This document shows, piece by piece, positions 37,170 to 54,693 of a stretch of DNA of 64,000 nucleotides. Within the stretch, counting starts at the first letter, position 1, and every line of letters starts with the position of its first letter. The DNA lies in contig CAWJTV010000041.1 of assembly GCA_963845755.1 (NCBI GenBank), positions 544,001 through 608,000 of the forward strand, given 5' to 3'. The translations under genes and the position numbers were made by a program. The notes beneath the pieces are model-generated. The model saw nothing but the letters and a program-made list of their open reading frames with translations. It did no database searches and had not been told where the DNA came from. This stretch comes from an uncultured Planctomycetota bacterium. Lineage in GTDB: Bacteria; Planctomycetota; Planctomycetia; Isosphaerales; Isosphaeraceae.

Positions 37170-39413
37170 ATGAGTATAGGTAAGCGGCGTCCCAAGCTCT
37201 CCCGGGCCAATCTGCGGCCCTCTGCGGCCACGGTCTCTCTGAGGCAGGATCGGCTGGCCCGCCAGCGCAGCCGCGCCGCAGTACTAGGGCTGGTCGCCGC
37301 CTCCCTGGTTGCGACCGCGGCCATCGTCCACGGCTCCGGCCCTCCATTCACATACCGGATTGGCGAGCGGCCGGATCGAGAGCTGCGGGTCAACGTCAAG
37401 GAATTCCGGATCCGCAACCAGACCAAGAGCAGCAACGAGCGGCAGGCCGCCGCCGATCAAGTGGCGCCGGTGATGGTCAATGATCCGACGCCGATCGCCG
37501 AGCTGTCCAAGCGGCTCGACGACCTCACCGTGACCATCGCCAAGGCGTCGCGATTCGAAGACATCCCCGAGAATGTCCGTGCCGCCTGGGGTCTGCTGCC
37601 CGAGTCCTTCCTCGAGCTGAAGTCGGCCACGGACACGCCCGAGCGGCGGGACACCTTGCAGGCGCAGATCGCCGAGGCGTTCCAGCCGCTGATTCGCGAC
37701 GGCATACTCGGCACTGGGACTTTGCCCCCCAATGAGGATGCCAGCGTGAACCTGTCCATCCGCCAACCGAAGGAGTCCCGTCCGGTCACGCGGCTGGTCC
37801 CGCGCGACCGAGTCGTCCCCGAGCGGATGATCAAGCCGGATGGCCCGGTGTACAAGGAATTCTGTAACACCTTCACCTCACCGCGGATCGGCCAGATCCT
37901 CTTCGGCCTGATCGCCAATCGCCTCGACGGCACCCCGACCCTTACCTACGAGGCCCAGGCCACCGCTGCGCTCCGTGAGGAGGCGCGGGCCCGTGTCCCC
38001 GATCATTTCGACACATTCAGCCGCGGCGATGTCCTCGTCGAGCAGGGCGAGACCATCGGCGAAGAGCAGCTCATCTTGCTGCGTCTCGAGCACGACGCTT
38101 TCGTGGAGAGCCTCGGGTTTGGCGACCGCGTGCGACGAGCCGGCGGCATCCTGGCCCTGGTCGCCGCGCTCTATGTGCTGACCGGATACTACATTTCGCG
38201 GCACGAGGCACGCTTCGTTCGCGAGACCGGGCGGATCGCCATGATTTGCGGCCTGGTCGTGCTGGCATTGGGCGCCGTGCGCAGGCCTGGGCATGCAGAC
38301 CTGGGACGCCGAGTTGGTTCCCGTCGCCATCGCCTCCATGATCATCGCGATCGCCTACAATCCGAACTTCGCGATGATGGTCACGTTCGCCCTCTCGGTG
38401 TTGACCAGCATCGCCCTGGGGACCGACATTCCCCACTTCCTGATCGTGATGGGGGGGACCGCCGCAGGGGTGCTCACCCTCACCGAGGTCCGCACTCGAA
38501 CCAAGCTGATCAAGGTCGGCGCCACCGCCTCGATCACCTACTTCCTCATGACGTGGGCCACCGGTTTCTGGCAGGATCGGCCGATCGAGCTGATCCGCGG
38601 CGACAGTTTCTGCGCGCGGGATGGGGATTGATGACCGGCTTCTTCCTGGGCGGGAGCCTGCCGTTCCTCGAAGGCGCCCTGGGGATCGTCACCGGCATCA
38701 GCCTGCTCGAGCTGGGGGACAACACCCACCCCCTGCTCCAGGAGCTGGTCCGGCGCGCCCCGGGGACCCACAACCATTCGATCACGGTCGGGGCGATCGC
38801 CGAAGCGGCGGCCGAGCGCGTCGGCGCCGATTCCCTGCTGGTTCGCATTGGCGCCTATTTCCACGACATCGGCAAGATGCTCAAGCCCCACTACTTCGTG
38901 GAGAACCAGGTCGGCTCGATCAATCGCCACGCCAAGCTCGCCCCGGCGATGAGTACGCTCATCATCATCGGCCACGTCAAGGACGGCGTGGACCTGGGCC
39001 GGCAACACCATCTGCCCGAACCGATCATCGACCTGATCGAGCAGCACCATGGGACGACCCTGGTCGAATACTTCTACTACGAGGCAAACCGCCGGAACGG
39101 CAACAACCCCGACGCCTCATCGGTACCCGAGAGCGCCTTCCGCTACCCTGGGCCCAGGCCCCAGACCAAGGAGGCGGCCATCCTGATGGTCGCCGACGCC
39201 GTCGAGAGCGCCAGCCGCACTCTCTCCGACCCCGCCCCTGCCCGGCTCGAGGGACTCGTCAGCGACCTGATCGACAAGCGGCTCCGCGACGGCCAGTTCG
39301 ACGAGTGCGGCCTGACCCTCCGCGAAATCGCCGAGATCCGCGACAGCCTGATCAAGTCGCTGATCGGCATCTACCACGGCCGGGTCAAGTACCCCGAGCA
39401 TCGGACGGCATGA
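37170..39413 (+). CDS. 7TM HD-domain phosphohydrolase (PgpH-like), compensating frameshifts around 38280-38615
   Basis: APGTHNHS, FHDIGK, IIIGHVKDG, QHHGTT, FRYPGPRPQTKEAAILMVAD; TM helices in ORF 38293..38631. Confidence 0.9.
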   Translation: MSIGKRRPKLSRANLRPSAATVSLRQDRLARQRSRAAVLGLVAASLVATAAIVHGSGPPFTYRIGERPDRELRVNVKEFRIRNQTKSSNERQAAADQVAPVMVNDPTPIAELSKRLDDLTVTIAKASRFEDIPENVRAAWGLLPESFLELKSATDTPERRDTLQAQIAEAFQPLIRDGILGTGTLPPNEDASVNLSIRQPKESRPVTRLVPRDRVVPERMIKPDGPVYKEFCNTFTSPRIGQILFGLIANRLDGTPTLTYEAQATAALREEARARVPDHFDTFSRGDVLVEQGETIGEEQLILLRLEHDAFVESLGFGDRVRRAGGILALVAALYVLTGYYISRHEARFVRETGRIAMICGLVVLALGAVRRPGHADLGRRVGSRRHRLHDHRDRLQSELRDDGHVRPLGVDQHRPGDRHSPLPDRDGGDRRRGAHPHRGPHSNQADQGRRHRLDHLLPHDVGHRFLAGSADRADPRRQFLRAGWGLMTGFFLGGSLPFLEGALGIVTGISLLELGDNTHPLLQELVRRAPGTHNHSITVGAIAEAAAERVGADSLLVRIGAYFHDIGKMLKPHYFVENQVGSINRHAKLAPAMSTLIIIGHVKDGVDLGRQHHLPEPIIDLIEQHHGTTLVEYFYYEANRRNGNNPDASSVPESAFRYPGPRPQTKEAAILMVADAVESASRTLSDPAPARLEGLVSDLIDKRLRDGQFDECGLTLREIAEIRDSLIKSLIGIYHGRVKYPEHRTA

Positions 39414-45470: not shown

Positions 45471-45782
45471 TTAGTCGAGGAGGTGATCACGCATCTGAAC
45501 CTTCCCGCTTGGCTTCGGGATAGGACCTCTTGCACGGCTTCGCTGGGATCTGGTGCCCATGGCCACAAGATACATACCCCCCAGCCAAAAACCGAGAAAG
45601 CTGCCGGCCGCCCCGCCCAAGAACACGAATACGGCAGCAATGAACGCCAGAATAAATAGGGACCCTACGTGATCGATATCATTTGGGTTGTTACTCGGCA
45701 AGAGGAGGATCACCAGGAAACAGATAAGGCCGGCTATAGCCCCGATCACCAAGCCATAGACCGTCGGTCGAAGTAGTCGCAT
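45471..45782 (-). CDS. Small hypothetical membrane protein
   Basis: MRLLRPTVYGLVIGAIAGLICFLVILLL with further hydrophobic helices; start uncertain. Confidence 0.55.
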   Translation of the reverse strand: MRLLRPTVYGLVIGAIAGLICFLVILLLPSNNPNDIDHVGSLFILAFIAAVFVFLGGAAGSFLGFWLGGMYLVAMGTRSQRSRARGPIPKPSGKVQMRDHLLD

Positions 45783-45939
45783 GATGATGCGGTCCTGTTT
45801 TCTCGAATGCTTCCGGACGACCCGATTTCGATGTGCATGGACTCCGAAGGGATTGACGAGGATGCGCATGGCCACGACCTCGACCGCTTCCATCGTCCGC
45901 CGTGAGGAGGTCGCATGCCCCCTTCCTGTGAAGGCTCGA

Positions 45940-46023
45940 CTCTAGTCCAGGCATTGCACCGCAGCCTTGACGTAAGTCCTTTCTCGACGTCCCTGATTTC
46001 GTCGATAGGAGGGGGATATTCAC
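45940..46023. repeat. 84-bp direct repeat, copy 2
   Basis: Same length and core as 45237-45320. Confidence 0.85.
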
Positions 46024-46256
46024 TGTTTACACATCGGACACTTGTTAGCCATTCCTCTATCGAGGTTGTCAGACGTTCACAGCACGGCCCAGGGCCTTTC
46101 TCAAGGATACCGCGGCGCAGGTTCGTTGCACCAGCGTCAAACCCTCGCGAGGTGTGAGGAATGGAGAATCCGCACTCTTCACAACACTCGGACCAGGATA
46201 GAAGACCAACTGGTCATGATGAATCGACAAGGGGAACGTCGGGGACAGGCGATGAG

Positions 46257-46327
46257 AGGCGCCGGCGGGAGTCGAACCCGCTTCCGCGGTTTTGCAGACC
46301 GCTGCCCGGCCGTCAGGCTCCGGCGCC
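46257..46327 (-). tRNA. tRNA-Cys(GCA)
   Basis: plus gcggt-tttgcag-accgc; U73. Confidence 0.92.
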
Positions 46328-46357
46328 CTGAGTGCTTCGACCCTCCCTCGGAGGGCA

Positions 46358-46430
46358 TGTCCTCGCCAGGAATCGAACCTGGTCTCCGACCTTCGCAAAG
46401 TCGTGTGCGCGTCCGTCACACTCCGAGGAC
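46358..46430 (-). tRNA. tRNA-Arg(GCG)
   Basis: plus cgacc-ttcgcaa-agtcg. Confidence 0.88.
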
Positions 46431-46457
46431 AACGATCGGAACAGGACCGTTGACGAG

Positions 46458-46528
46458 TCCCCCACCCGGGAATCGAACCCGGCCTTGCGGCTTCGAAGAC
46501 CGCCGTGCGTCCGCCACACCCGCAGGGA
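46458..46528 (-). tRNA. tRNA-Arg(TCG)
   Basis: plus gcggc-ttcgaag-accgc. Confidence 0.85.
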
Positions 46529-46538
46529 AACAGCCGAG

Positions 46539-46610
46539 TGCCCTTGCCAGGAGTCGAACCTGGTCTTCGACCTTCGGAGGGTCGCGTGCCGTCCGTCACA
46601 CGCCAAGGGC
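46539..46610 (-). tRNA. tRNA-Arg(CCG)
   Basis: plus cgacc-ttcggag-ggtcg. Confidence 0.9.
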
Positions 46611-46618
46611 GCAATCGA

Positions 46619-46690
46619 AGCCGACGGCCGGGCTCGAACCGGCATGAACCTGCTTACAAGGCAGGGGCCTCACCGTTCGGCCACGTCGGC
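46619..46690 (-). tRNA. tRNA-Thr(TGT)
   Basis: plus cctgc-ttacaag-gcagg. Confidence 0.92.
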
Positions 46691-46699
46691 AGATAAGAG

Positions 46700-46769
46700 C
46701 AGGGGCGCAAGGATTTGAACCCTGTCCGCGAGCTTTGGAAACTCGCTGCTCTCCCAGGAGCACACCCCT
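46700..46769 (-). tRNA. tRNA-Trp(CCA)
   Basis: plus cgagc-tttggaa-actcg; G73. Confidence 0.88.
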
Positions 46770-46791
46770 ATCATTCGATCGATTGAGCGAG

Positions 46792-46864
46792 GGTATTCGG
46801 CGGGAGTTGAACCCGGCGCCTCGAGATTCACAGTCTCGCATGCTTCCGCTACACCACGAACACC
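46792..46864 (-). tRNA. tRNA-His(GTG)
   Basis: plus cgaga-ttcacag-tctcg; G-1:C73. Confidence 0.9.
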
Positions 46865-46901
46865 ATCAGCAAGTCCGGCCCGAGGTTCACCCGGGCCGAG
46901 G

Positions 46902-46985
46902 CGGAAGGGGCGGGAGTCGAACCCGCAAGGCTCATCGCTCGTCCGCTTTCCAAGCGGGTCCCGTCGCCGGTCGGGTGGCCCTTCC
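46902..46985 (-). tRNA. tRNA-Ser(GGA)
   Basis: plus tccgc-tttccaa-gcggg; long variable arm; G73. Confidence 0.88.
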
Positions 46986-47002
46986 GTATCAATCAGTTTC
47001 AG

Positions 47003-47076
47003 TGGGCGATGCAGGGGTCGAACCTGCGGCCTCCAGCGTGTCATGCTGGCGCTCTGGCCGGCTGAGCTAACCGCCC
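47003..47076 (-). tRNA. tRNA-Val(GAC)
   Basis: plus ccagc-gtgtcat-gctgg. Confidence 0.92.
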
Positions 47077-47087
47077 GGATGATCCAT

Positions 47088-47160
47088 TACCCCGACCAGG
47101 ACTCGAACCCGAAACTCCTCGTTAGGACCGAGGCGTGATCCTCCCTTTCACCATCGGGGC
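47088..47160 (-). tRNA. tRNA-Arg(CCT)
   Basis: plus cctcg-ttaggac-cgagg. Confidence 0.85.
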
Positions 47161-47170
47161 CAGGAACAAG

Positions 47171-47256
47171 CGGAAGGCAAGGGATTCGAACCCTCATCCC
47201 CTCTCGAGGAACCGTTTTAGCAGGACGGCTCGGCAAACCGTATCCGACTACCTTCC
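47171..47256 (-). tRNA. tRNA-Ser(GCT)
   Basis: plus ccgtt-ttagcag-gacgg; long variable arm. Confidence 0.88.
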
Positions 47257-47263
47257 GTTCGAG

Positions 47264-47334
47264 TGGACCCACCGGGAGTCGAACCCGGGTCTCCGGCCTG
47301 CCGAGCCGGTGTCGTTCCGCTGGACGATGGGCCC
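47264..47334 (-). tRNA. tRNA-Ala(GGC)
   Basis: plus ccggc-ctgccga-gccgg; G3:U70; C33. Confidence 0.88.
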
Positions 47335-47364
47335 TTCAAACTTCCCAACCTGCGTTCAACCGAG

Positions 47365-47435
47365 TGGACCGCCGGGGAGTCGAACCCCGATTCCCGGCGT
47401 GCGATACCGGTGTCGTCCCGTTGGACCAGCAGCCC
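47365..47435 (-). tRNA. tRNA-Ala(CGC)
   Basis: plus ccggc-gtgcgat-accgg; G3:U70. Confidence 0.88.
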
Positions 47436-47445
47436 GTTTGCGAGA

Positions 47446-47516
47446 AGGTCCGCCCGAGAATCGAACTCGGTCCCCCTCCTTACCATGGAGGTGTGCTGCC
47501 GGAACACCTGCAGACC
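47446..47516 (-). tRNA. tRNA-Thr(GGT)
   Basis: plus cctcc-ttaccat-ggagg. Confidence 0.88.
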
Positions 47517-47529
47517 GGACGGCGGAGAG

Positions 47530-47602
47530 TCGTCCCGGCAGGACTCGAACCTGCGCTAACCTGTGTGTAAGACAGGCGTCTTGGCCGCTAGACGACGGGA
47601 CG
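47530..47602 (-). tRNA. tRNA-Val(TAC)
   Basis: plus cctgt-gtgtaag-acagg. Confidence 0.92.
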
Positions 47603-47614
47603 AATTGCGGTCAG

Positions 47615-47688
47615 TAGCACGGGTGGGATTCGAACCCACAGACACCAGGCCCTCGACCTGGTCGCGATGCCAGTTAGCGTACCGTGCC
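47615..47688 (-). tRNA. tRNA-Leu(GAG), short variable loop
   Basis: plus ccagg-ccctcga-cctgg; 5-nt variable loop; C33. Confidence 0.82.
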
Positions 47689-47702
47689 AGGAACACCGAC
47701 AG

Positions 47703-47771
47703 TTGCGGGTCGGGGAGTCGAACCTCCGTCTCCGAGCGTATGAAACTCGGCCGAGCACCGGCCCACCCGCA
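47703..47771 (-). tRNA. tRNA(CAT), fMet-like acceptor stem, reduced D arm
   Basis: plus cgagc-gtatgaa-actcg; TGCGGGT/ACCCGCA acceptor. Confidence 0.7.
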
Positions 47772-47772
47772 G

Positions 47773-47842
47773 TCCCAGGCCCCGGTATCGAGCCGGGCGG
47801 ATCGGCCTCATGAAAGCCAACCGGGCACCTGCCTCGCCTGGG
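47773..47842 (-). tRNA. tRNA(CAT), Met or Ile2, reduced D arm
   Basis: plus cggcc-tcatgaa-agcca; T loop CUCGAUA. Confidence 0.65.
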
Positions 47843-47875
47843 AAACTCGCAGTATCAGTCCAACCGATCAATCAG

Positions 47876-47958
47876 TCGCCAGGGGGAGATTCGAACTCCC
47901 ACGCCTCGAGGGCACGTGCTTCTGAGGCCCGCGCGTCTACCAGTTCCGCCACCCGGCG
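47876..47958 (-). tRNA. tRNA-Leu(CAG)
   Basis: plus cgtgc-ttctgag-gcccg; long variable arm. Confidence 0.88.
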
Positions 47959-47973
47959 CGTCGTCCAGTACAG

Positions 47974-48046
47974 TAGTCCGTGCGGGAATCGAACCCGCCT
48001 CTTCAGCTTGAGGGGCTGATATCCTGAGCCGATAGACGAACGGACC
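47974..48046 (-). tRNA. tRNA-Glu(CTC)
   Basis: plus tcagc-ttgaggg-gctga; C33. Confidence 0.88.
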
Positions 48047-48064
48047 TTGAATAAGAACCTCCAG

Positions 48065-48150
48065 TGGGTAGTGAAGGAGTTGAACCTTCCGCCTTCCGCC
48101 TCACAACTTGAGGGCAACGGTTTTACAGACCGCCGTGAGGAACACCACCC
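48065..48150 (-). tRNA. tRNA-Tyr(GTA), D-armless, very long variable region
   Basis: plus acggt-tttacag-accgc; only 10 nt between acceptor and anticodon stems. Confidence 0.75.
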
Positions 48151-48169
48151 GAGAAAAACCATCCGCGAG

Positions 48170-48244
48170 TAGCACGGGTGGGAGTCGAACCCACAGAATC
48201 CCCGGGTTTGAGCCGGGTCGCTTTGCCGGTTTGCGTACCGTGCC
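48170..48244 (-). tRNA. tRNA-Leu(CAA), short variable loop
   Basis: plus cccgg-gtttgag-ccggg; 6-nt variable loop. Confidence 0.85.
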
Positions 48245-48260
48245 ATCTCTCCTACTCCAG

Positions 48261-48335
48261 CGCCCCCGGCGGGATTCGAACCCGCGACCTCCACTGTGAC
48301 AGAGTGGCGAGCTCTCCAGGCTGCTCCACGAAGGC
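48261..48335 (-). tRNA. tRNA-Asp(GTC)
   Basis: plus ccact-gtgacag-agtgg; G73. Confidence 0.9.
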
Positions 48336-48344
48336 GTGATCGAA

Positions 48345-48418
48345 TGGCTCAGGAGGGAGTCGAACCCTCAGCATCCCTCGTTCTAAGCGAGAGTGGTCTG
48401 CCGATTGCCTACCGAGCC
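48345..48418 (-). tRNA. tRNA-Leu(TAG), short variable loop
   Basis: plus cctcg-ttctaag-cgaga. Confidence 0.83.
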
Positions 48419-48443
48419 GAGAACTCTTGCACCGAGAACCCAT

Positions 48444-48516
48444 TACCCAGGGTGGGAGTCGAACCCACAGGCGCCCGGGTTTAAGCCGGGCCGCTCAGCC
48501 GTTGGCGTACCTGGGT
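48444..48516 (-). tRNA. tRNA-Leu(TAA), short variable loop
   Basis: plus cccgg-gtttaag-ccggg; 5-nt variable loop. Confidence 0.85.
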
Positions 48517-48529
48517 CCTCTCTCCGAGG

Positions 48530-48614
48530 CGGAAGCCGTGGGACTCGAACCCACAAGCGGCCTGCGCCGCCACCTGCTTTCAAGACAGGCCCCTGATCCA
48601 GCCGGTTGGCTTCC
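48530..48614 (-). tRNA. tRNA-Ser(TGA)
   Basis: plus cctgc-tttcaag-acagg; long variable arm. Confidence 0.85.
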
Positions 48615-48634
48615 GTGAGGGCATTCCACGCGAG

Positions 48635-48709
48635 TTCCGGGGGCTGGAATCGAACCAGCGGCCTCCGCGTTCAGAGCGCGGCGTCACTACCACCAGCAAC
48701 TGCCCCGGA
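48635..48709 (-). tRNA. tRNA-Gln(CTG)
   Basis: plus ccgcg-ttcagag-cgcgg; U1-A72. Confidence 0.9.
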
Positions 48710-48782
48710 TTCGGGAAGGAGGAATTCGAACCCCCACCGCCTGATTCAAAGTCAGGGAGCCTACCACTTAGCCGATTCCCGA
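48710..48782 (-). tRNA. tRNA-Gln(TTG)
   Basis: plus cctga-ttcaaag-tcagg; abuts the previous gene. Confidence 0.87.
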
Positions 48783-48783
48783 G

Positions 48784-48853
48784 AGCGCCCCGCGGGAGTC
48801 GAACCCGCCTTTCGGACCTGGGAAGCCCGCCCTGACCGCTCGGCCAGGGACGC
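48784..48853 (-). tRNA. tRNA-Gly(CCC)
   Basis: plus cggac-ctgggaa-gcccg. Confidence 0.83.
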
Positions 48854-48871
48854 ATCAACCGTCGCTTCGAG

Positions 48872-48942
48872 TGCGGGATCGGGGAGTCGAACCCCGATCG
48901 CCTGGTTGGAAGCCAGGAATCTTGCCATTGGACCAATCCCGC
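48872..48942 (-). tRNA. tRNA-Gly(TCC)
   Basis: plus cctgg-ttggaag-ccagg; A73. Confidence 0.9.
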
Positions 48943-48952
48943 GGCCTGCCAG

Positions 48953-49036
48953 CGGAAGGAGAGGGAGTCGAACCCTCAAGGCTCATCGCTCGTCCGGATT
49001 CGAGCCGGGTGCCGTCGCCAATCGGCTTGCCCTTCC
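48953..49036 (-). tRNA. tRNA-Ser(CGA)
   Basis: plus tccgg-attcgag-ccggg; long variable arm. Confidence 0.88.
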
Positions 49037-49046
49037 CCAGGAACAG

Positions 49047-49121
49047 CTCCGGCGGCAGGAATCGAACCTGCGTCCCCCCGGTTAACAGCCGGGCGCTCGT
49101 ACCAGCACGAACTCCACCGGA
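49047..49121 (-). tRNA. tRNA-Asn(GTT)
   Basis: plus cccgg-ttaacag-ccggg; G73. Confidence 0.9.
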
Positions 49122-49138
49122 ATCATCGCGTCAGACAG

Positions 49139-49213
49139 TCGGGATGGCCGGATTTGAACCGGCGATTTCCTGCTCCCAAGGCAGGCGGATTAGCCAGGCT
49201 TTCCTACATCCCG
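49139..49213 (-). tRNA. tRNA-Pro(TGG)
   Basis: plus cctgc-tcccaag-gcagg; C1-G72, A73. Confidence 0.92.
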
Positions 49214-49233
49214 AGTCGCCTCGTTTTCCGACA

Positions 49234-49304
49234 AGTGCCCAGCGGGAGTCGAACCCGCACGTCCGCCTTGGCAAAGCGGTAGGCTTCCGCTACATCATGG
49301 GCAC
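49234..49304 (-). tRNA. tRNA-Gly(GCC)
   Basis: plus ccgcc-ttggcaa-agcgg; U73. Confidence 0.9.
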
Positions 49305-49336
49305 GATCGCCGTCCCCGAATTGTCAAGGAACCGAG

Positions 49337-49408
49337 AGCACCGGGTGGGACTCGAACCCACGTCGCCGCCTTACGAGAGCGGAGTCTTCGCCGCTGGACG
49401 ACCAGTGC
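49337..49408 (-). tRNA. tRNA-Thr(CGT)
   Basis: plus ccgcc-ttacgag-agcgg. Confidence 0.9.
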
Positions 49409-49419
49409 CTGCATCACGA

Positions 49420-49492
49420 TGGGACCGGAGGGGCTCGAACCCTCACCGAACCGGTTAAGAGCCGGACGTTCTGCCGCTAGAACTTCAGTCCC
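49420..49492 (-). tRNA. tRNA-Lys(CTT)
   Basis: plus accgg-ttaagag-ccgga. Confidence 0.9.
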
Positions 49493-49506
49493 GACTGGTA
49501 GATGAG

Positions 49507-49579
49507 TAGCCCGTGTGGGAATCGAACCCACCTCTCCGCCTTGAAAGGGCGGTATCCTGCGCCGATAGACGAACGAGCC
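49507..49579 (-). tRNA. tRNA-Glu(TTC)
   Basis: plus ccgcc-ttgaaag-ggcgg. Confidence 0.92.
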
Positions 49580-49590
49580 ATCTTCACGAG

Positions 49591-49662
49591 TGGGCCGGGG
49601 GGCGCTCGAATCCCCGTCTGCCGGGCTTCAACCGGCCGCTAGACCGTCTCAGCTACCGACCC
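49591..49662 (-). tRNA. tRNA-Phe(GAA), first gene of the array
   Basis: plus gccgg-gcttcaa-ccggc; G37. Confidence 0.85.
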
Positions 49663-49675
49663 ATTCCGCGATCCC

Positions 49676-49711
49676 AACAAAAAGGCCCGGTGTCTTCGTC
49701 ACACCGGGCCT
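49676..49711 (-). terminator. Intrinsic terminator (attenuator) directly upstream of the tRNA array
   Basis: minus AGGCCCGGTGT-gacgaag-ACACCGGGCCT-TTTTGTT: perfect 11-bp stem plus U tract, oriented with the array. Confidence 0.85.
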
Positions 49712-49745
49712 GAGACTCCACGCGAGGGATGTCCGAGACCGGGTG

Positions 49746-49847
49746 TCACGTCTGCAAGGGATAGAACCGGAGCGGGTTCGCCGACAGGTCGGCGGATCGC
49801 TTCGTTTCTTGACAACCCAGGGTGTAACGCGGACTCCCGGCGAACAT
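49746..49847 (-). CDS. Putative leader peptide, 33 aa, MFAGSPRYTLGCQETKRSADLSANPLRFYPLQT
   Basis: GAGGT SD at 49853-57, ATG at 49847, TGA at 49746-48 inside the antiterminator; too short for the ORF track. Confidence 0.72.
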   Translation of the reverse strand: MFAGSPRYTLGCQETKRSADLSANPLRFYPLQT

Positions 49848-49930
49848 GGACAACCTCGATGTTACGGGTGTCTCAGGCCGACTGGACTCGGGGCCAACCT
49901 CACGGCTCGCCCGTCGTCTTGTACCCTTAC

Positions 49931-49956
49931 AGACGCATCACCCCGGGAGGATGTTC
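49931..49956 (-). promoter_or_regulatory. Putative ECF-type promoter of the leader/tRNA array
   Basis: minus GAAC-N17-CGTCT, about 85 nt upstream of the leader ATG. Confidence 0.5.
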
Positions 49957-49994
49957 GCGCGATTTCGAAGAGATTATTGGTGGAGCCATTTCCG

Positions 49995-50080
49995 ATCCCG
50001 ATTCGCTGCATTACGGCCCGCCATCGAGCGTTCGCCGGGACCATGAACGATACGATCTCTTCGAGGCCGAGCACCAGGGG
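49995..50080 (-). pseudogene. Fragment of a RimJ/RimL-type GNAT acetyltransferase
   Basis: LGLEEIVSFMVPANARWRAVMQRIG resembles a GNAT C-terminal motif; no complete gene. Confidence 0.5.
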
Positions 50081-50259
50081 CGTATCCGTTCTCTCGCCGC
50101 AAGTCCAAATCGCTCAAGCCCTCGGGAGATGTCGAGATGGGCGAGGGGCCTCGAAAATCATTGGACCTGACGTGTTCCGTGCCGGTACGTCGCATAGAGG
50201 GGAGATGGGTGACTGAGCGGGACAGGCAAGCCGTCTGCCACACTTTACAGGAGAAGCTC

Positions 50260-51324
50260 ATGCAGACCATGACCACGGAACTCGAGCGGTTGATCGGCAA
50301 GGTCATTGGGGACCTGGGCGGCACGGCCAACGCGGCCCTCGTTATCGTCGGCGACCGGCTCGGGTTATATCGGACCCTCGCCGAGATCGGCCCCACTACC
50401 TCGCACGAACTGGCCCAGCAGACTGGCACGCACGAGCGATATATCCGCGAGTGGCTTGCCGCCCAGGCGGCTTCCGACTATGTCGACTACGACCCGGCCA
50501 CCAAGCGGTTCAGCATGTCCCGCGAGCAAGCCATGCTCTTTGCCGATGAGAACAGTCCGGTGTACATGGCCGGAGGCTTCTTCGCCGCGGCGGCGGCCAT
50601 CAACGACGAACGACACCTGGCGGAGGCGTTCCGGTCGGGACGTGGGATCGCATGGAGCGATCACCACGACTGCCTGTTCTGCGGCACGGAGAAGTTCTTC
50701 CGCCCGTCCTATGCCGGAAACCTCCTCCAGTCGTGGATCCCGTCGCTGGGGGACATGCACGCGAGGCTCCAGGCCGGGGGAACCGTGGCCGATCTCGGCT
50801 GTGGGCACGGTTGCTCCACCGTCCTCATGGCGAAGGCCTATCCGGCCTCCACGTTCGTCGGCTTCGATAGCCACATGCCGTCGATCGAGCGCGCCCGCGA
50901 GACGGCGGCCGCGCAGGAACTCCCCAACGCACGCTTCGAGGTCGCGACGGCGCAAAACTTCACACGGATTGATGGAGACGGCTACGACCTGGTCGCGATC
51001 TTCGACGCCCTGCATGACATGGGCGACCCGCACGGCGCGGCCCGTCGAGTGCGAGAGATGTTGAAAGCCGATGGAACCTGGATGATCGTCGAACCGGCCG
51101 CGGGCGATCGGCTGGAGGAGAACCTCAACCCGGTGGGCCGCGTGTTCTATGCCCTCTCCACGGCCGTCTGCGTCCCCTCGGCCTTGAGCCAGAAAGGGGG
51201 CGAATCGCTTGGGGCTCAGGCCGGACCTGCCGTGTTGGAGAACGTGGTCACCAGCAGCGGCTTCTCCAGATTCCGGATCGCCACAAAGTCCCCGTTCAAT
51301 CTGGTGATCGAGGCCAAGCGATAA
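50260..51324 (+). CDS. Class I SAM-dependent methyltransferase with N-terminal winged helix (Rv2258c-like)
   Basis: GDRLGLY, ERYIREWL, VADLGCGHG, FDALHDMGDP, LGAQAG. Confidence 0.92.
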   Translation: MQTMTTELERLIGKVIGDLGGTANAALVIVGDRLGLYRTLAEIGPTTSHELAQQTGTHERYIREWLAAQAASDYVDYDPATKRFSMSREQAMLFADENSPVYMAGGFFAAAAAINDERHLAEAFRSGRGIAWSDHHDCLFCGTEKFFRPSYAGNLLQSWIPSLGDMHARLQAGGTVADLGCGHGCSTVLMAKAYPASTFVGFDSHMPSIERARETAAAQELPNARFEVATAQNFTRIDGDGYDLVAIFDALHDMGDPHGAARRVREMLKADGTWMIVEPAAGDRLEENLNPVGRVFYALSTAVCVPSALSQKGGESLGAQAGPAVLENVVTSSGFSRFRIATKSPFNLVIEAKR

Positions 51325-52451: not shown

Positions 52452-53525
52452 CTATTTCCCCGAGAGTGAGGCGAGTCTCGAGAGCGTCTCCTCTCCGAGC
52501 CGCCTCGTGAGCTCGCCCGCCGGTAACTCGCGGCAGAGGTGCGCCGCCTGCCCCGACCAGAGCGGCGAGAAGTCCCCCGAGCCTTCCGCCTCGGACTTCG
52601 ACCGAAGGGGCGCCACTGCACCCGCCGCGAGCGGGAACCTCGGTGCGATCTCGGACAGGGGACCGACTTCGCGAACAAGACGGTTCATGATCCCCCGCGC
52701 GGGGCGGCCCGTGAAGACGTTTGTGATTGTCGTCTCGCCGGCACCTTTCAGCGCCGTCCGGTGGACCTCGCTCGTCGTCGCCTCCGGGCAGAGGAGATAG
52801 GCCGTGCCGATCTGGACGGCCGAGGCCCCGAGCGCGAGGGCCGCGACGACGCCTCGCGCGTCGGCGATGCCGCCCGCGGCGATAACCGGCACGCGCACAG
52901 CGTCGGCCACCTGTGGGACGAGCGCCATCGTCCCGACCTGGGTCGAGACGTCCTCCGACAGGAACATCCCCCGATGCCCCCCCGCCTCGGCGCCCTGAGC
53001 GATGATCGCGTCGCAGCCCCTGGCCTCGAGCCAGCGTGCCTCCTCGACCGAGGTCGCAGACGAGATGACCTTCGCGCCCGATGACTTGACCCGGGCCAGG
53101 AGCTCCCCATCCGGGAGACCGAAATGAAAACTCACGACCTCGGCCTTGAGCTCGCAGACGACCTCGCACATCGCCTTGTCGAACGGTAGGCGGCTCGTCA
53201 CCGCGGTCGGGGCCGTCGGGTCGAGCCCGAGCTCGACGTAGTATCGCTCGAGGCGATTCTTCCACACGGAGACGCGGTCGGGATCTGGGCCGGGAGGCGT
53301 GTGACAGAAGAAATTCAGGTTGATAGGTTTCGAGGATTGCCGACGAATAGACTTCACCTCGCTTCGAACCTGATCCGACCCGAGCAGTGCGCAGGGAAGT
53401 GATCCCAGTCCCCCGGCCTCAGAGACGGCGATCGCAAGCCCGGAGCCATTCGACCCCGCCATGGGGGCCTGGATGATCGGAAGTTCAATCCCGAAGAGGT
53501 CGAGGATCCGACGGTCCGGCCACAT
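52452..53525 (-). CDS. Nitronate monooxygenase family flavoprotein
   Basis: PIIQAPMAG, QGAEAGGHRG, VIAAGGIAD, VQIGTAYL. Confidence 0.93.
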   Translation of the reverse strand: MWPDRRILDLFGIELPIIQAPMAGSNGSGLAIAVSEAGGLGSLPCALLGSDQVRSEVKSIRRQSSKPINLNFFCHTPPGPDPDRVSVWKNRLERYYVELGLDPTAPTAVTSRLPFDKAMCEVVCELKAEVVSFHFGLPDGELLARVKSSGAKVISSATSVEEARWLEARGCDAIIAQGAEAGGHRGMFLSEDVSTQVGTMALVPQVADAVRVPVIAAGGIADARGVVAALALGASAVQIGTAYLLCPEATTSEVHRTALKGAGETTITNVFTGRPARGIMNRLVREVGPLSEIAPRFPLAAGAVAPLRSKSEAEGSGDFSPLWSGQAAHLCRELPAGELTRRLGEETLSRLASLSGK

Positions 53526-54693
53526 ATCGATTCTCCTCACCAACCGGCGCAACGACCGCAGACTTCGCGCCCATGCGCCTCAGATAGTCCACGATCCTTT
53601 TTTTATCGTTCTTGATCGCCATGTCGAGAGCCGTCTCTCCGTTGTTGTTCACCGCGATCGGGCTTGCGCCGCGTTCCAGCAGCAATTCGACGACCTTGAG
53701 CGTAGAGTTTCTCTCGCAGGCTTTATGCAAAGGCGTGTTGCTTCCATGATCCGTTACGTTGATCATGGCGCCATGATCGACCAACCACCTTGTACCGACG
53801 ATATCGCCCTGGTGTGCGAATGCGTGCAATAACGTGCGACTACCGAGTTTTTCGTCGATATCGACGCCCGATTCCAGACATAGGGCCGCAACCTCGTAAT
53901 TCCCTCGACCGTGACGCTGGCCATGCCCCAAGGCCGCGAACACCGTTCCAATGCCTGGCTGCCATCCATGCGCCATGAGAAGTTGAGCGATCTTCACGTT
54001 TCCTCCGCGCGACGCACACAGATCGAGAGGACTCACGTCACGATCCACGCGCATCGGCCCCTGGTCCAGTAACCGTTCAGCACAAAGGACGAGTTGCTTC
54101 GCATAGGCTGGATCCGATTTTCCCAGCTCGGACCTGCAGGCGTAGTCCAGCGCGGTCATGCCCTTCTCGCCCAGCAAATCATAATCTGTCGTTCTACCGG
54201 CCAGCGCCGGGTCCGCGAGAAGCCAGTCGCGAACACGATCCATGTCGCCGATCGCAGCGGCTGTGTACAGGTTTTGTTCTGCCCCCGCGTCGATCAATAT
54301 ATGCATGATGTCAATGTGAGGCCCTACTGTCGCGGCACACACGAGATGGTAATCCGGCCTCGCGCCAATCTGGATCAAGAACCTGACCAGCTCCAGGTGG
54401 CTTGGCTTCTTGGGCGCCGACTTGAAATCCATGACGGCCAGGGCGAGTAGCCTGTCCCGATTGGCGGCGGTGATCAGGCTCCGATTCTGCTTGAGGGCAG
54501 CATAGTCCCCCTTTTTTGCGAGCGTCCCGAGGTGAGCAGGTTTTCGATCACCTCTCCCGCTCGCGTGAAGTTCACGCCTCCGCCTGTTAACACAAGCGGA
54601 ACACTTTTTCGCCAGCCCATCCGGCTCCTTGCGACTTCCGGAAAAGGAGGAAGAATCCAAGACGCGCTTGCACTCCTGGCATTGCTTCTTCAT
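53485..54693 (-). CDS. Ankyrin-repeat protein with N-terminal C4 zinc-finger-like segment
   Basis: MKKQCQECK...KKCSAC; TALDYAC, TLLH, TPLHKAC, GETALDMA. Confidence 0.85.
   Translation of the reverse strand: MKKQCQECKRVLDSSSFSGSRKEPDGLAKKCSACVNRRRRELHASGRGDRKPAHLGTLAKKGDYAALKQNRSLITAANRDRLLALAVMDFKSAPKKPSHLELVRFLIQIGARPDYHLVCAATVGPHIDIMHILIDAGAEQNLYTAAAIGDMDRVRDWLLADPALAGRTTDYDLLGEKGMTALDYACRSELGKSDPAYAKQLVLCAERLLDQGPMRVDRDVSPLDLCASRGGNVKIAQLLMAHGWQPGIGTVFAALGHGQRHGRGNYEVAALCLESGVDIDEKLGSRTLLHAFAHQGDIVGTRWLVDHGAMINVTDHGSNTPLHKACERNSTLKVVELLLERGASPIAVNNNGETALDMAIKNDKKRIVDYLRRMGAKSAVVAPVGEENRYVAGPSDPRPLRD

Follow-up and report, generated by a model that had tools for sequence, protein, structure and literature searches.

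A putative leader-peptide attenuator ahead of a long tRNA array in the planctomycete family Isosphaeraceae

How is the transcription of a long array of transfer RNA (tRNA) genes controlled, if most of its anticodons are also found elsewhere in the genome? The question is raised by a stretch of 64,000 nucleotides (nt) from an uncultured planctomycete of the family Isosphaeraceae (assembly GCA_963845755.1, contig CAWJTV010000041.1, positions 544,001 to 608,000). This whole stretch is called the window below. It holds a tRNA array which is preceded by a short leader, and the leader has a promoter-like sequence, a small open reading frame (ORF) and an intrinsic terminator.

The answer offered here is that such arrays are probably controlled by a ribosome-mediated transcription attenuator, also called a leader-peptide attenuator. 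The argument is drawn from DNA sequence, and mostly from the comparison of related leaders.

The array itself is easily described. ARAGORN finds 36 tRNA genes at 46256-49662, all on the minus strand and in one orientation, over about 3.4 kb. The first of these is tRNA-Phe(GAA), at 49662-49590 on the minus strand. Two large gaps in the array each hold one more tRNA, both of them marginal and found at a relaxed ARAGORN threshold. The one at about 47772-47842 is a second Met(CAU), called only at that threshold. The other, at about 48064-48150, scores 29.7 bits with the Rfam tRNA-Sec model, which is below the cut-off; by eye its anticodon loop is CUGUAAA, which is Tyr-like. With 36-38 tRNAs in the same orientation, and with anticodons that are mostly duplicated elsewhere in the genome, this has the make-up of a long tRNA array, or "L-array" (PMC8421152).

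Leader elements and the proposed switch

All elements of the leader are on the minus strand. A promoter-like sequence, CGAACATCCTCCCGGGGTGATGCGTCT, is found at 49957-49931. Its -35 element is GAAC (49956-49953), followed by a 17-nt spacer and the -10 element GCGTCT (49936-49931). Promoters of extracytoplasmic function (ECF) sigma factors have AAC at -35 and CGT at -10 as their hallmark, at a spacing of some 16-17 nt. By this consensus the GAAC-N17-GCGTCT sequence is ECF-sigma-like in type. The 5' untranslated leader would span 49858-49924, with an approximate start that follows from the position of the -10 element and the spacing between promoter and ribosome-binding site.

That site is a Shine-Dalgarno sequence, GAGG, at 49854-49857, 6 nt before the ATG. 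The leader ORF (49746-49847) runs for 33 codons from the ATG at 49847 to a TGA at 49748-49746, and encodes the peptide MFAGSPRYTLGCQETKRSADLSANPLRFYPLQT.

The intrinsic terminator lies at 49676-49711. Its arms, segments 3 and 4 in the usual numbering of attenuators, are AGGCCCGGTGT and ACACCGGGCCT. They form 11 pairs, of which 8 are G-C, around a 7-nt loop, and are followed by the tail TTTTTGTT. The hairpin is worth -22.7 kcal/mol and ends 13 nt before tRNA-Phe.

Between the ORF and the terminator, and partly overlapping the former, is the candidate antiterminator strand or segment 2, CGUGACACCCGGUCU (49736-49750). It contains the UGA stop codon of the leader. It can pair with AGGCCCGGUGUGACG (49711-49697), which is the 5' arm of the terminator plus its loop, at 13 of 15 positions (-19.4 kcal/mol). 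This helix and the terminator exclude each other.

These are the features by which leader-peptide attenuators are recognized: a small ORF in the 5' leader that has its own ribosome-binding site and start codon, a terminator between that ORF and the first gene, an exclusive antiterminator helix, and a stop codon inside the antiterminator strand. The original prediction, made by a model from the letters alone, had described promoter, Shine-Dalgarno sequence, ORF, terminator and antiterminator, and each is present where it had been placed. The pairing at 13 of 15 positions, with the stop inside it, could be reproduced as well. The 38 tRNAs it counted came back as 36 firm and 2 marginal ones from ARAGORN, relaxed ARAGORN and Rfam.

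The proposed switch would work as follows. Transcription would start at the ECF-sigma-like promoter, and a ribosome would load at the Shine-Dalgarno sequence and translate the 33-codon leader while RNA polymerase moves on. A ribosome that keeps pace would sit on the UGA as the terminator is made, with its footprint over the antiterminator strand at 49750-49736. With that strand masked, the 11-bp terminator would form and transcription would end 13 nt before tRNA-Phe. A ribosome that lags, or that has stalled earlier in the ORF, would leave the antiterminator strand to pair with the 5' arm and loop of the terminator as these emerge. With the antiterminator formed there would be no terminator, and polymerase would read into the array. 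A shortage in decoding, damage to tRNAs or inhibitors that target the ribosome would slow translation of the leader. In this way translation would act back on the supply of a second, divergent set of tRNAs.

A ribosome covers some 12-13 nt downstream of its A site, as is known from toeprinting. The antiterminator strand ends 12 nt after the U of the UGA, which as a matter of geometry is within that footprint. Such geometry, together with folding models, suggests the direction of the switch, with termination when the ribosome is at the stop and read-through when it stalls. The signal that would trip the switch is likewise a proposal.

Conservation and spread of the leader

Related leaders were gathered in an alignment, A2, of 32 non-redundant sequences, made with MAFFT and without structural guidance. 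Duplicate loci were left out, as were nhmmer hits that start after model position 40 (L036, L053, L040, L056).

The ORF is kept throughout this alignment. Its ATG columns are at least 90% invariant, the Shine-Dalgarno sequence is conserved in the arrangement GAGG-N5-6-ATG, and the stop is invariably T-[G/A]-A. The aligned distance from ATG to stop is a multiple of three in all 32 leaders. A clean ORF from ATG or GTG is present in 31 of them, and it has exactly 33 codons in 25. The other lengths, 90, 96, 99, 105, 108 and 117 nt, all differ by whole codons. Frame 0 is free of stops in 32 of 32 leaders, where frames +1 and +2 are so in only 14 and 17. The peptides are another matter, and those of close relatives differ at many residues. 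The Arg codons 17 and 32 are partial exceptions, as changes there fall mostly on the third position. This is what one expects if the act of translation counts and the peptide that comes of it mostly does not. The conservation of frame, Shine-Dalgarno sequence, start and stop argues that the ORF is translated.

The helices are kept too. In the terminator, 91.5% of cells are paired across the 32 leaders, versus 28-56% in slid controls, and four pairs show compensatory changes. For the antiterminator helix (A2 columns 136-150 with 181-195) the figure is 83.8% of 432 cells, versus 24-43% when slid. None of 500 shuffles reaches the observed pairing or covariation score, a control that overstates significance because the leaders are related sequences.

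The most telling columns are 137 and 194, in which the base before the stop meets a base of the terminator loop. The pair is GC in 12 leaders, UA in 8 and GU in 2. The terminator itself places no constraint on this loop base. Such loop covariation, and the slid controls, are sturdier evidence than the shuffles.

A further helix would join segment 2 to a candidate segment 1, or anti-antiterminator, at 49833-49840. The two pair in the minimum free energy (MFE) structure of the window leader. Across the alignment (codons 3-5; A2 columns 18-31 with 140-147), 69.2% of cells are paired versus 33-44% slid, and 9 of 500 shuffles are as high. The case for this segment as an anti-antiterminator, made from sequence, is a moderate one.

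Aligning the upstream regions of relatives had been proposed as a check, and ORF, stop position and helices all turn out to be conserved, with covariation in the stems. Every element that the original prediction put forward recurs across genera, which supports its reading of the leader as a ribosome-mediated attenuator, with geometry and folding models as the basis for the direction.

Retrieval of these loci was done in two ways. A DNA query made of leader plus tRNA-Phe has matches in 26 of 61 relatives and in 61 of 121 genomes of the family. The loci found in this way carry homologous arrays, which, like the array of the window, begin Phe-Glu-. In A2, a tRNA on the same strand follows 4-233 nt past the T-tract in 32 of 32 leaders, with at least three tRNAs each, a linkage that is biased since most of these leaders were retrieved with a query containing tRNA-Phe.

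The second way avoids this. A covariance model, R1, was built from A2 and has no tRNA sequence in it. It gives 83 matches in 59 of 121 family genomes and in 33 of 53 genera, with 1-4 matches per genome. A second set was then formed from 40 further R1 matches (of the 83) found by the leader alone. Not included are a few weak matches (for example in G139) and 12 antisense hits, of which one is weak and 11 are short matches to the palindromic terminator. In this set, 35 of 40 leaders have a tRNA within 300 nt, and 30 of 40 have a clean ORF. The first tRNA is of at least 12 kinds: Pro, Gln, Leu, Arg, Asp, Lys, Val, Glu, Ile, Gly, Ser or Cys. Four of the five exceptions are weak or partial matches. 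The fifth, L122 (G105:C19:3434633-3436508), scores 96.9 bits and has no tRNA behind it; a transposase-like ORF is found there on the other strand. Probably, an insertion sequence has separated this leader from its array.

Across the phylum, sampled evenly, R1 matches 4 of 151 genomes. They comprise the genome of the window, 2 of the 6 genomes from one sister family, and a single weak hit. The distribution looks lineage-bound; a sprinkled phylogenetic distribution, pointing to horizontal transfer, is a further mark of L-arrays (PMC8421152).

The leader can also occur more than once in a genome. With an nhmmer profile of the leader only, exactly three copies are found in the window's own assembly (G000), each before a block of tRNAs. 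One is that of the window, and the other two are on contig C20. The leader of the unit at C20:431618-432244 precedes Pro(GGG)-Lys(UUU)-Ile(UAU)-Ile(GAU), and that of the unit at C20:450077-451106 precedes Ala(UGC)-Arg(UCU)-Val(GAC)-His-Trp. Both copies have the same promoter, a 33-codon ORF, the stop inside the antiterminator strand, and the terminator. The two units are about 18 kb apart, and their gene orders of 4-5 tRNAs match parts of the long arrays of relatives. It looks as if these blocks are pieces of an array that moved together with a leader of their own. Elsewhere, in G008 and G081, extra leaders are found inside the array, ahead of later tRNA blocks, and the array behind a leader of G035 begins with tRNA-Lys. 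An HNH endonuclease had been guessed by eye inside the G008 array from a CxxC...H motif; no Pfam family was found for it.

The promoter travels with the leader. Of the 32 aligned leaders, 31 have a motif GAAC-N16-18-[CG]GTC[TCA] located 67-113 nt upstream of the Shine-Dalgarno sequence, and 25 have it in the strict GCGTCT form. The ordinary tRNA genes of G000 show promoters of the type TTGACA-N17-TAnAAT instead. The loose GAAC motif is upstream of 3 of the 102 ARAGORN tRNA calls in that assembly, versus a background of 2.5%. The strict motif has 28 hits in the genome, versus roughly estimated 20 expected. These numbers led to the rejection of GAAC/GCGTCT as a general promoter of G000. Three of the 28 hits are the tRNA-array leaders.

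Four more belong to one repeated element, with near-identical copies (C1:148787, C5:789539, C34:62845 and C41:486279) that each contain the strict motif by chance. Another site, GCGCGAACATCC...GCGTCT at C20:720408-720434 (minus strand; L064), is followed by no leader and faces a gene for an IS66-like transposase on the opposite strand. It may be a remnant, and is uninformative. In relatives, an A-rich tract (for example "caaaaaaa") often comes directly upstream of the -35 GAAC, at about 49958-49975 in the window. It resembles an UP element.

Could the array have a promoter of its own, downstream of the terminator? The gap between terminator and tRNA-Phe is only 13 nt, and a consensus scan of 45500-50500 finds no sigma-70-like site, so there is no room for a separate array promoter. 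None was found in this check, which had been listed among the possible refutations. It was also considered that the TTGACG/GTGACA of the antiterminator strand might conceal a sigma-70 promoter. In the leaders checked by eye, there is no -10-like hexamer 17 nt downstream of it.

The promoter can also do without the leader. At 25 further loci in relatives that carry an array-type tRNA-Phe, the promoter motif is present in 23. In 11 of these it is 235-316 nt upstream of the tRNA, the spacing expected with a leader in between. In the other 12 (L013, L014, L017, L020, L028, L031, L042, L047, L050, L052, L054 and L058) it is 44-104 nt upstream, and there is no leader ORF or terminator. Because these 12 loci have the promoter only, the attenuator would be an optional module between promoter and array. 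The leaderless relatives are natural controls that lack the attenuator.

The genes around the array in the window are unrelated to it. They are a divergent methyltransferase with a winged helix-turn-helix domain, a GDSL lipase, a nitronate monooxygenase and a DUF1559 protein. A 92-nt "tRNA-Phe" that ARAGORN calls at 52543-52634 (minus strand) is false: it has a mismatched acceptor stem and is inside the nitronate monooxygenase gene (52452-53552, Pfam PF03060).

Points against, rival explanations and the signal

Several observations weigh against the attenuator. Some of these concern the RNA. In the window alone, 97 of 1000 dinucleotide shuffles pair equally well with the terminator arm. For the fold of the whole window leader z is -1.83, with 10 of 200 shuffles equalling it. 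Because the single window sequence is not beyond chance, the case rests on the comparison with relatives. There, the terminator helix is nearly invariant in sequence, which leaves few compensatory changes, and the kinship of the leaders flatters the shuffle controls.

Folding models, which had been suggested as a check on nascent RNA, give a divided answer. If the RNA is cut before the 3' arm of the terminator and left naked, the antiterminator has P > 0.5 in 20 of 32 leaders. It is not favoured in the other 12, and the window leader is among these (P = 0.19). In that leader and its closest relatives (P = 0.19, 0.00, 0.02 and 0.70), the antiterminator strand is paired with segment 1 instead, and becomes free (P about 0.8) if a ribosome is modelled over codons 3-16. 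A modelled ribosome on the last 4-5 codons blocks the antiterminator by its imposed footprint, which is a consistency check and no evidence.

Other points concern the ORF. Ten of the 40 leaders in the second set lack a clean ORF, and these are mostly low-scoring matches of uncertain alignment. Entropy is nearly equal at codon positions 1, 2 and 3 (1.18, 1.28 and 1.26), which means that the peptide is mostly without selection at the protein level. If the leader were matched to its array by codons, the downstream tRNAs should read it. By manual count those of the two C20 copies read only 3 of 33 codons (C20a) and 5-7 of 33 (C20b), and the idea of a codon-matched leader was dropped. A leader of rare codons was rejected as well: compared with gene pieces, the window leader has a codon adaptation index at the 33rd percentile, which is unremarkable. 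To this must be added the 12 relatives that run an array-type tRNA-Phe off the same type of promoter without a leader.

The last point concerns the tRNAs. The G000 assembly has 49 contigs and an estimated completeness of 88%. The three attenuator-led arrays account for 45 of its 102 ARAGORN tRNA calls. Among the rest, several are of an odd length, 84-99 nt, and are probably false. Most anticodons of the arrays are also found elsewhere. Phe(GAA), Lys(UUU), Ile(UAU), Leu(CAA), Arg(GCG) and Val(GAC), within this assembly, are found in the attenuator-led arrays only. For tRNA-Lys(UUU) and tRNA-Arg(GCG) the same is true of G034, a relative with 99% completeness. Since tRNA-Lys(UUU) is confined to arrays in both genomes, decoding of AAA would depend on array expression.

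In G034 the tRNA-Phe of the array and a lone tRNA-Phe are identical at 33 of 73 positions, and the lone copy has a sigma-70-type promoter. A canonical tRNA-Phe is also found in G000, on contig C40 at about 38379-38419 (minus strand), with a TTGACA-type promoter upstream. It is 97.6% identical to the lone G034 copy over positions 1-41 and then breaks off, at a point adjoined by an integrase-like ORF. Its 3' half was not found in the G000 assembly. This truncation suggests that array tRNAs can replace housekeeping ones. It also means that the array of the window holds the only intact tRNA-Phe of the assembly, and that it cannot be simply "off".

The original prediction spoke of a backup array that stays off. 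The backup part stands in so far as most anticodons are duplicated elsewhere, and the rest does not agree with the only intact tRNA-Phe and a tRNA-Lys(UUU) found only in arrays. Because the arrays supply some indispensable tRNAs, some read-through must be normal, and graded feedback fits better than an on/off emergency switch.

Some array tRNAs also look different from their counterparts elsewhere in G000. Those for Leu (CAA, GAG, UAA and UAG; window 47614-48516) are 73-76 nt long and without a long variable arm, and the copies elsewhere are 83-87 nt. At position 37, A is found in the array tRNAs for Gln, His, Leu(CAG), Leu(UAG) and Arg(CCG), and G in the copies elsewhere.

What else could the leader be? 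The alternative that survives best, and which is itself unlikely, is that the switch is real and set by a trans-acting factor that binds the leader RNA. A protein, a small molecule or an uncharged tRNA could act in this way. The presence of the ORF, in that case, would be incidental, or it would code for a small protein with another role. In its favour is a conserved hairpin inside the ORF, CCGCCGA-cctg-TCGGCGA (49778-49795, minus strand), which a model with only a ribosome does not strictly need. In the 32 leaders 74% of its cells are paired versus 13-45% slid, 7 of 7 pairs have at least one compensatory change, and none of 500 shuffles reaches its covariation score. With a leader-peptide attenuator it may be a pause hairpin for RNA polymerase.

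There is possibly more structure of this kind. The spacer that separates the antiterminator strand from the terminator holds a possible anti-Shine-Dalgarno sequence, CCUCG, at 49723-49727 (minus strand). If this spacer is compared with shuffled ones, its best duplex with the Shine-Dalgarno region has a mean z of -1.40, with 12 of 32 leaders below -1.64, which is suggestive of such a pairing in the models. The entropy without a protein-like period also fits a trans-acting factor. Against it stands a search of 45800-50400 with Rfam at E ≤ 1, which finds tRNA-related models only and nothing at all in 49663-50400, T-box and riboswitch families included. No known RNA family was thus found for the leader at this threshold. 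In addition, an untranslated RNA would not require that frame, length, Shine-Dalgarno sequence, ATG and stop are kept in 32 or 31 of 32 very divergent leaders, nor would it explain a stop codon placed exactly inside the antiterminator strand.

Next, and rather improbable, comes the idea that there is no switch. The leader would be a gene for a 33-residue peptide with an ordinary terminator, and the tRNAs would be made from constant leak-through. The terminator is indeed strong, and is part of the MFE structure in 29 of the 32 full leaders. The array has to be expressed to some degree, holding unique tRNAs as it does, and the antiterminator of a single sequence is what chance might give. This idea is opposed by the pairing of the stop strand with the terminator arm and loop across the alignment, which covaries at the very loop position that the terminator leaves free. 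It is further opposed by the repetition of the leader before separate tRNA blocks, with up to four copies per genome, and by the poor conservation of the supposed peptide.

The least likely alternative keeps the attenuator and gives it opposite or more specific logic: as in TnaC and SpeFL, where arrest at a stop codon is regulated, the sequence Y-P-x-R-x-UGA would arrest the ribosome at the stop, and a metabolite or the activity of release factor 2 would set the time of masking. The C-terminal Y-P-x-R-x-stop is kept in many leaders, and Tyr29, Pro30 and Arg32 are the best-kept residues (13, 18 and 20 of 24). The codon of Arg32, as said, changes mostly at its third position. Of the 32 A2 leaders, 31 have UGA as their stop and one has UAA, and in nearly all a C comes next. 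These nucleotides are within or next to the antiterminator strand, however, so selection on the RNA explains much of this, and the residue just before the stop varies (C, L, T or W).

A leader-peptide attenuator thus stays the preferred reading. What would it sense? The consensus has no repeated codon, and with that none of the runs of regulatory codons, cognate to the product, that define one subtype of attenuator. The peptide of the window leader uses 16 amino acids. The mean GC content at third codon positions in the 32 leaders is 0.63, versus 0.82 in genes, and the other two frames are equally low (0.59), which points to composition and not to codon choice. Because there is no codon run and no match to the downstream tRNAs, the sensed quantity would be the general speed of decoding, which is the most likely candidate. 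This logic is nearer to that of antibiotic-responsive attenuators with an upstream ORF (uORF) than to trp or his. UGA followed by C is a weak context for termination, and the conserved Y-P-x-R-x-UGA-C may prolong the stay of a terminating ribosome.

A weak hint of read-through comes from metatranscriptomes. The search for such data gave only runs holding 12-17% of the sampled words. In 4 of 4 runs there are contigs from relatives, 88-95% alike, that span the leader and continue across the terminator into tRNA-Phe; examples are 49504-49800, 49504-49818 and 49641-49800. These are compatible with read-through transcripts and no proof of transcription, being contigs that show neither ends, strand nor level and where carry-over of DNA is possible.

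Meaning and comparison with known systems

If true, this would be direct feedback from translation to the supply of tRNA by way of attenuation, a control principle that is not known to have been described for tRNA genes. Control of tRNA genes is usually thought to happen at initiation, in the form of growth-rate control and stringent control. An attenuator driven by translation speed would carry leader-peptide attenuation from amino-acid synthesis to the decoding machinery. It would also give long tRNA arrays a function that can be tested. The element is well suited to experiment, as it is short and modular and comes in up to four diverged copies per genome.

A wider idea, which may equally well turn out right or wrong, is that the second, divergent tRNA set is a self-regulating module for emergency translation. 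It would have its own alternative-sigma promoter, and a sentinel ORF before each block would turn a slowdown into more transcription of tRNA. Such a module could also explain how these arrays come to be tolerated, and their importance under attack by agents that damage tRNA or antibiotics that target the ribosome.

The class of mechanism is already known, since leader-peptide attenuation has long been described. What appears to be new is the target, tRNA genes, together with the absence of regulatory codons, the alternative-sigma-type promoter, and the repetition before several tRNA blocks. Full-text literature searches, which covered journals outside subscription, returned no paper that describes leader-peptide attenuation of tRNA genes. 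A 2015 survey of tRNA arrays, in the text available, mentions Planctomycetes once and the word "terminator" not at all (PMC4758250).

T-box leaders are similar in that terminator and antiterminator compete in a leader RNA, with a tie to the status of tRNA. The leader described here differs from these in matching no Rfam family at E ≤ 1, in having a conserved translated ORF, and in what follows it, which is tRNA genes and not aminoacyl-tRNA synthetases.

Leader-peptide attenuators are well known from amino-acid operons, such as trp, his, leu, thr, ilv and pheA of E. coli and Salmonella. With the trp and his type the leader shares a short ORF with a Shine-Dalgarno sequence, a stop that lets the ribosome cover segment 2, and exclusive 2:3 and 3:4 helices. 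It also shares the possible 1:2 pairing and, in the mid-leader hairpin, a possible pause site. Unlike these, it has tRNA targets, no codon run for a single amino acid, and a longer ORF of freely varying sequence. The ECF-like promoter and the repetition before several tRNA blocks in a genome also set it apart.

Attenuators that respond to inhibitors come closer. In the leaders of vmlR, bmrCD, lmo0919, msrD and topAI, the rate of uORF translation picks the terminator or the antiterminator, and the output helps translation under stress. What these leaders regulate is genes for resistance or toxins, and they come mostly from Firmicutes, Actinobacteria or E. coli. The output of the planctomycete leader would be a set of tRNAs.

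The one long tRNA array that has been studied is the trn operon of Anabaena sp. PCC 7120, which is induced by translational stress (PMC8421152). According to that study's main text, its control acts on initiation: direct repeats overlie the -10 box and the transcript start, and a repressor is presumed; "terminator", "attenuat" and "leader" have no occurrences in this text (PMC8421152). Going by the same text, both systems have a long array in one orientation, with mostly redundant and divergent tRNAs, special control, and a link to impaired translation. Where the Anabaena array is controlled at initiation, the planctomycete arrays would be controlled by a leader ORF and a terminator.

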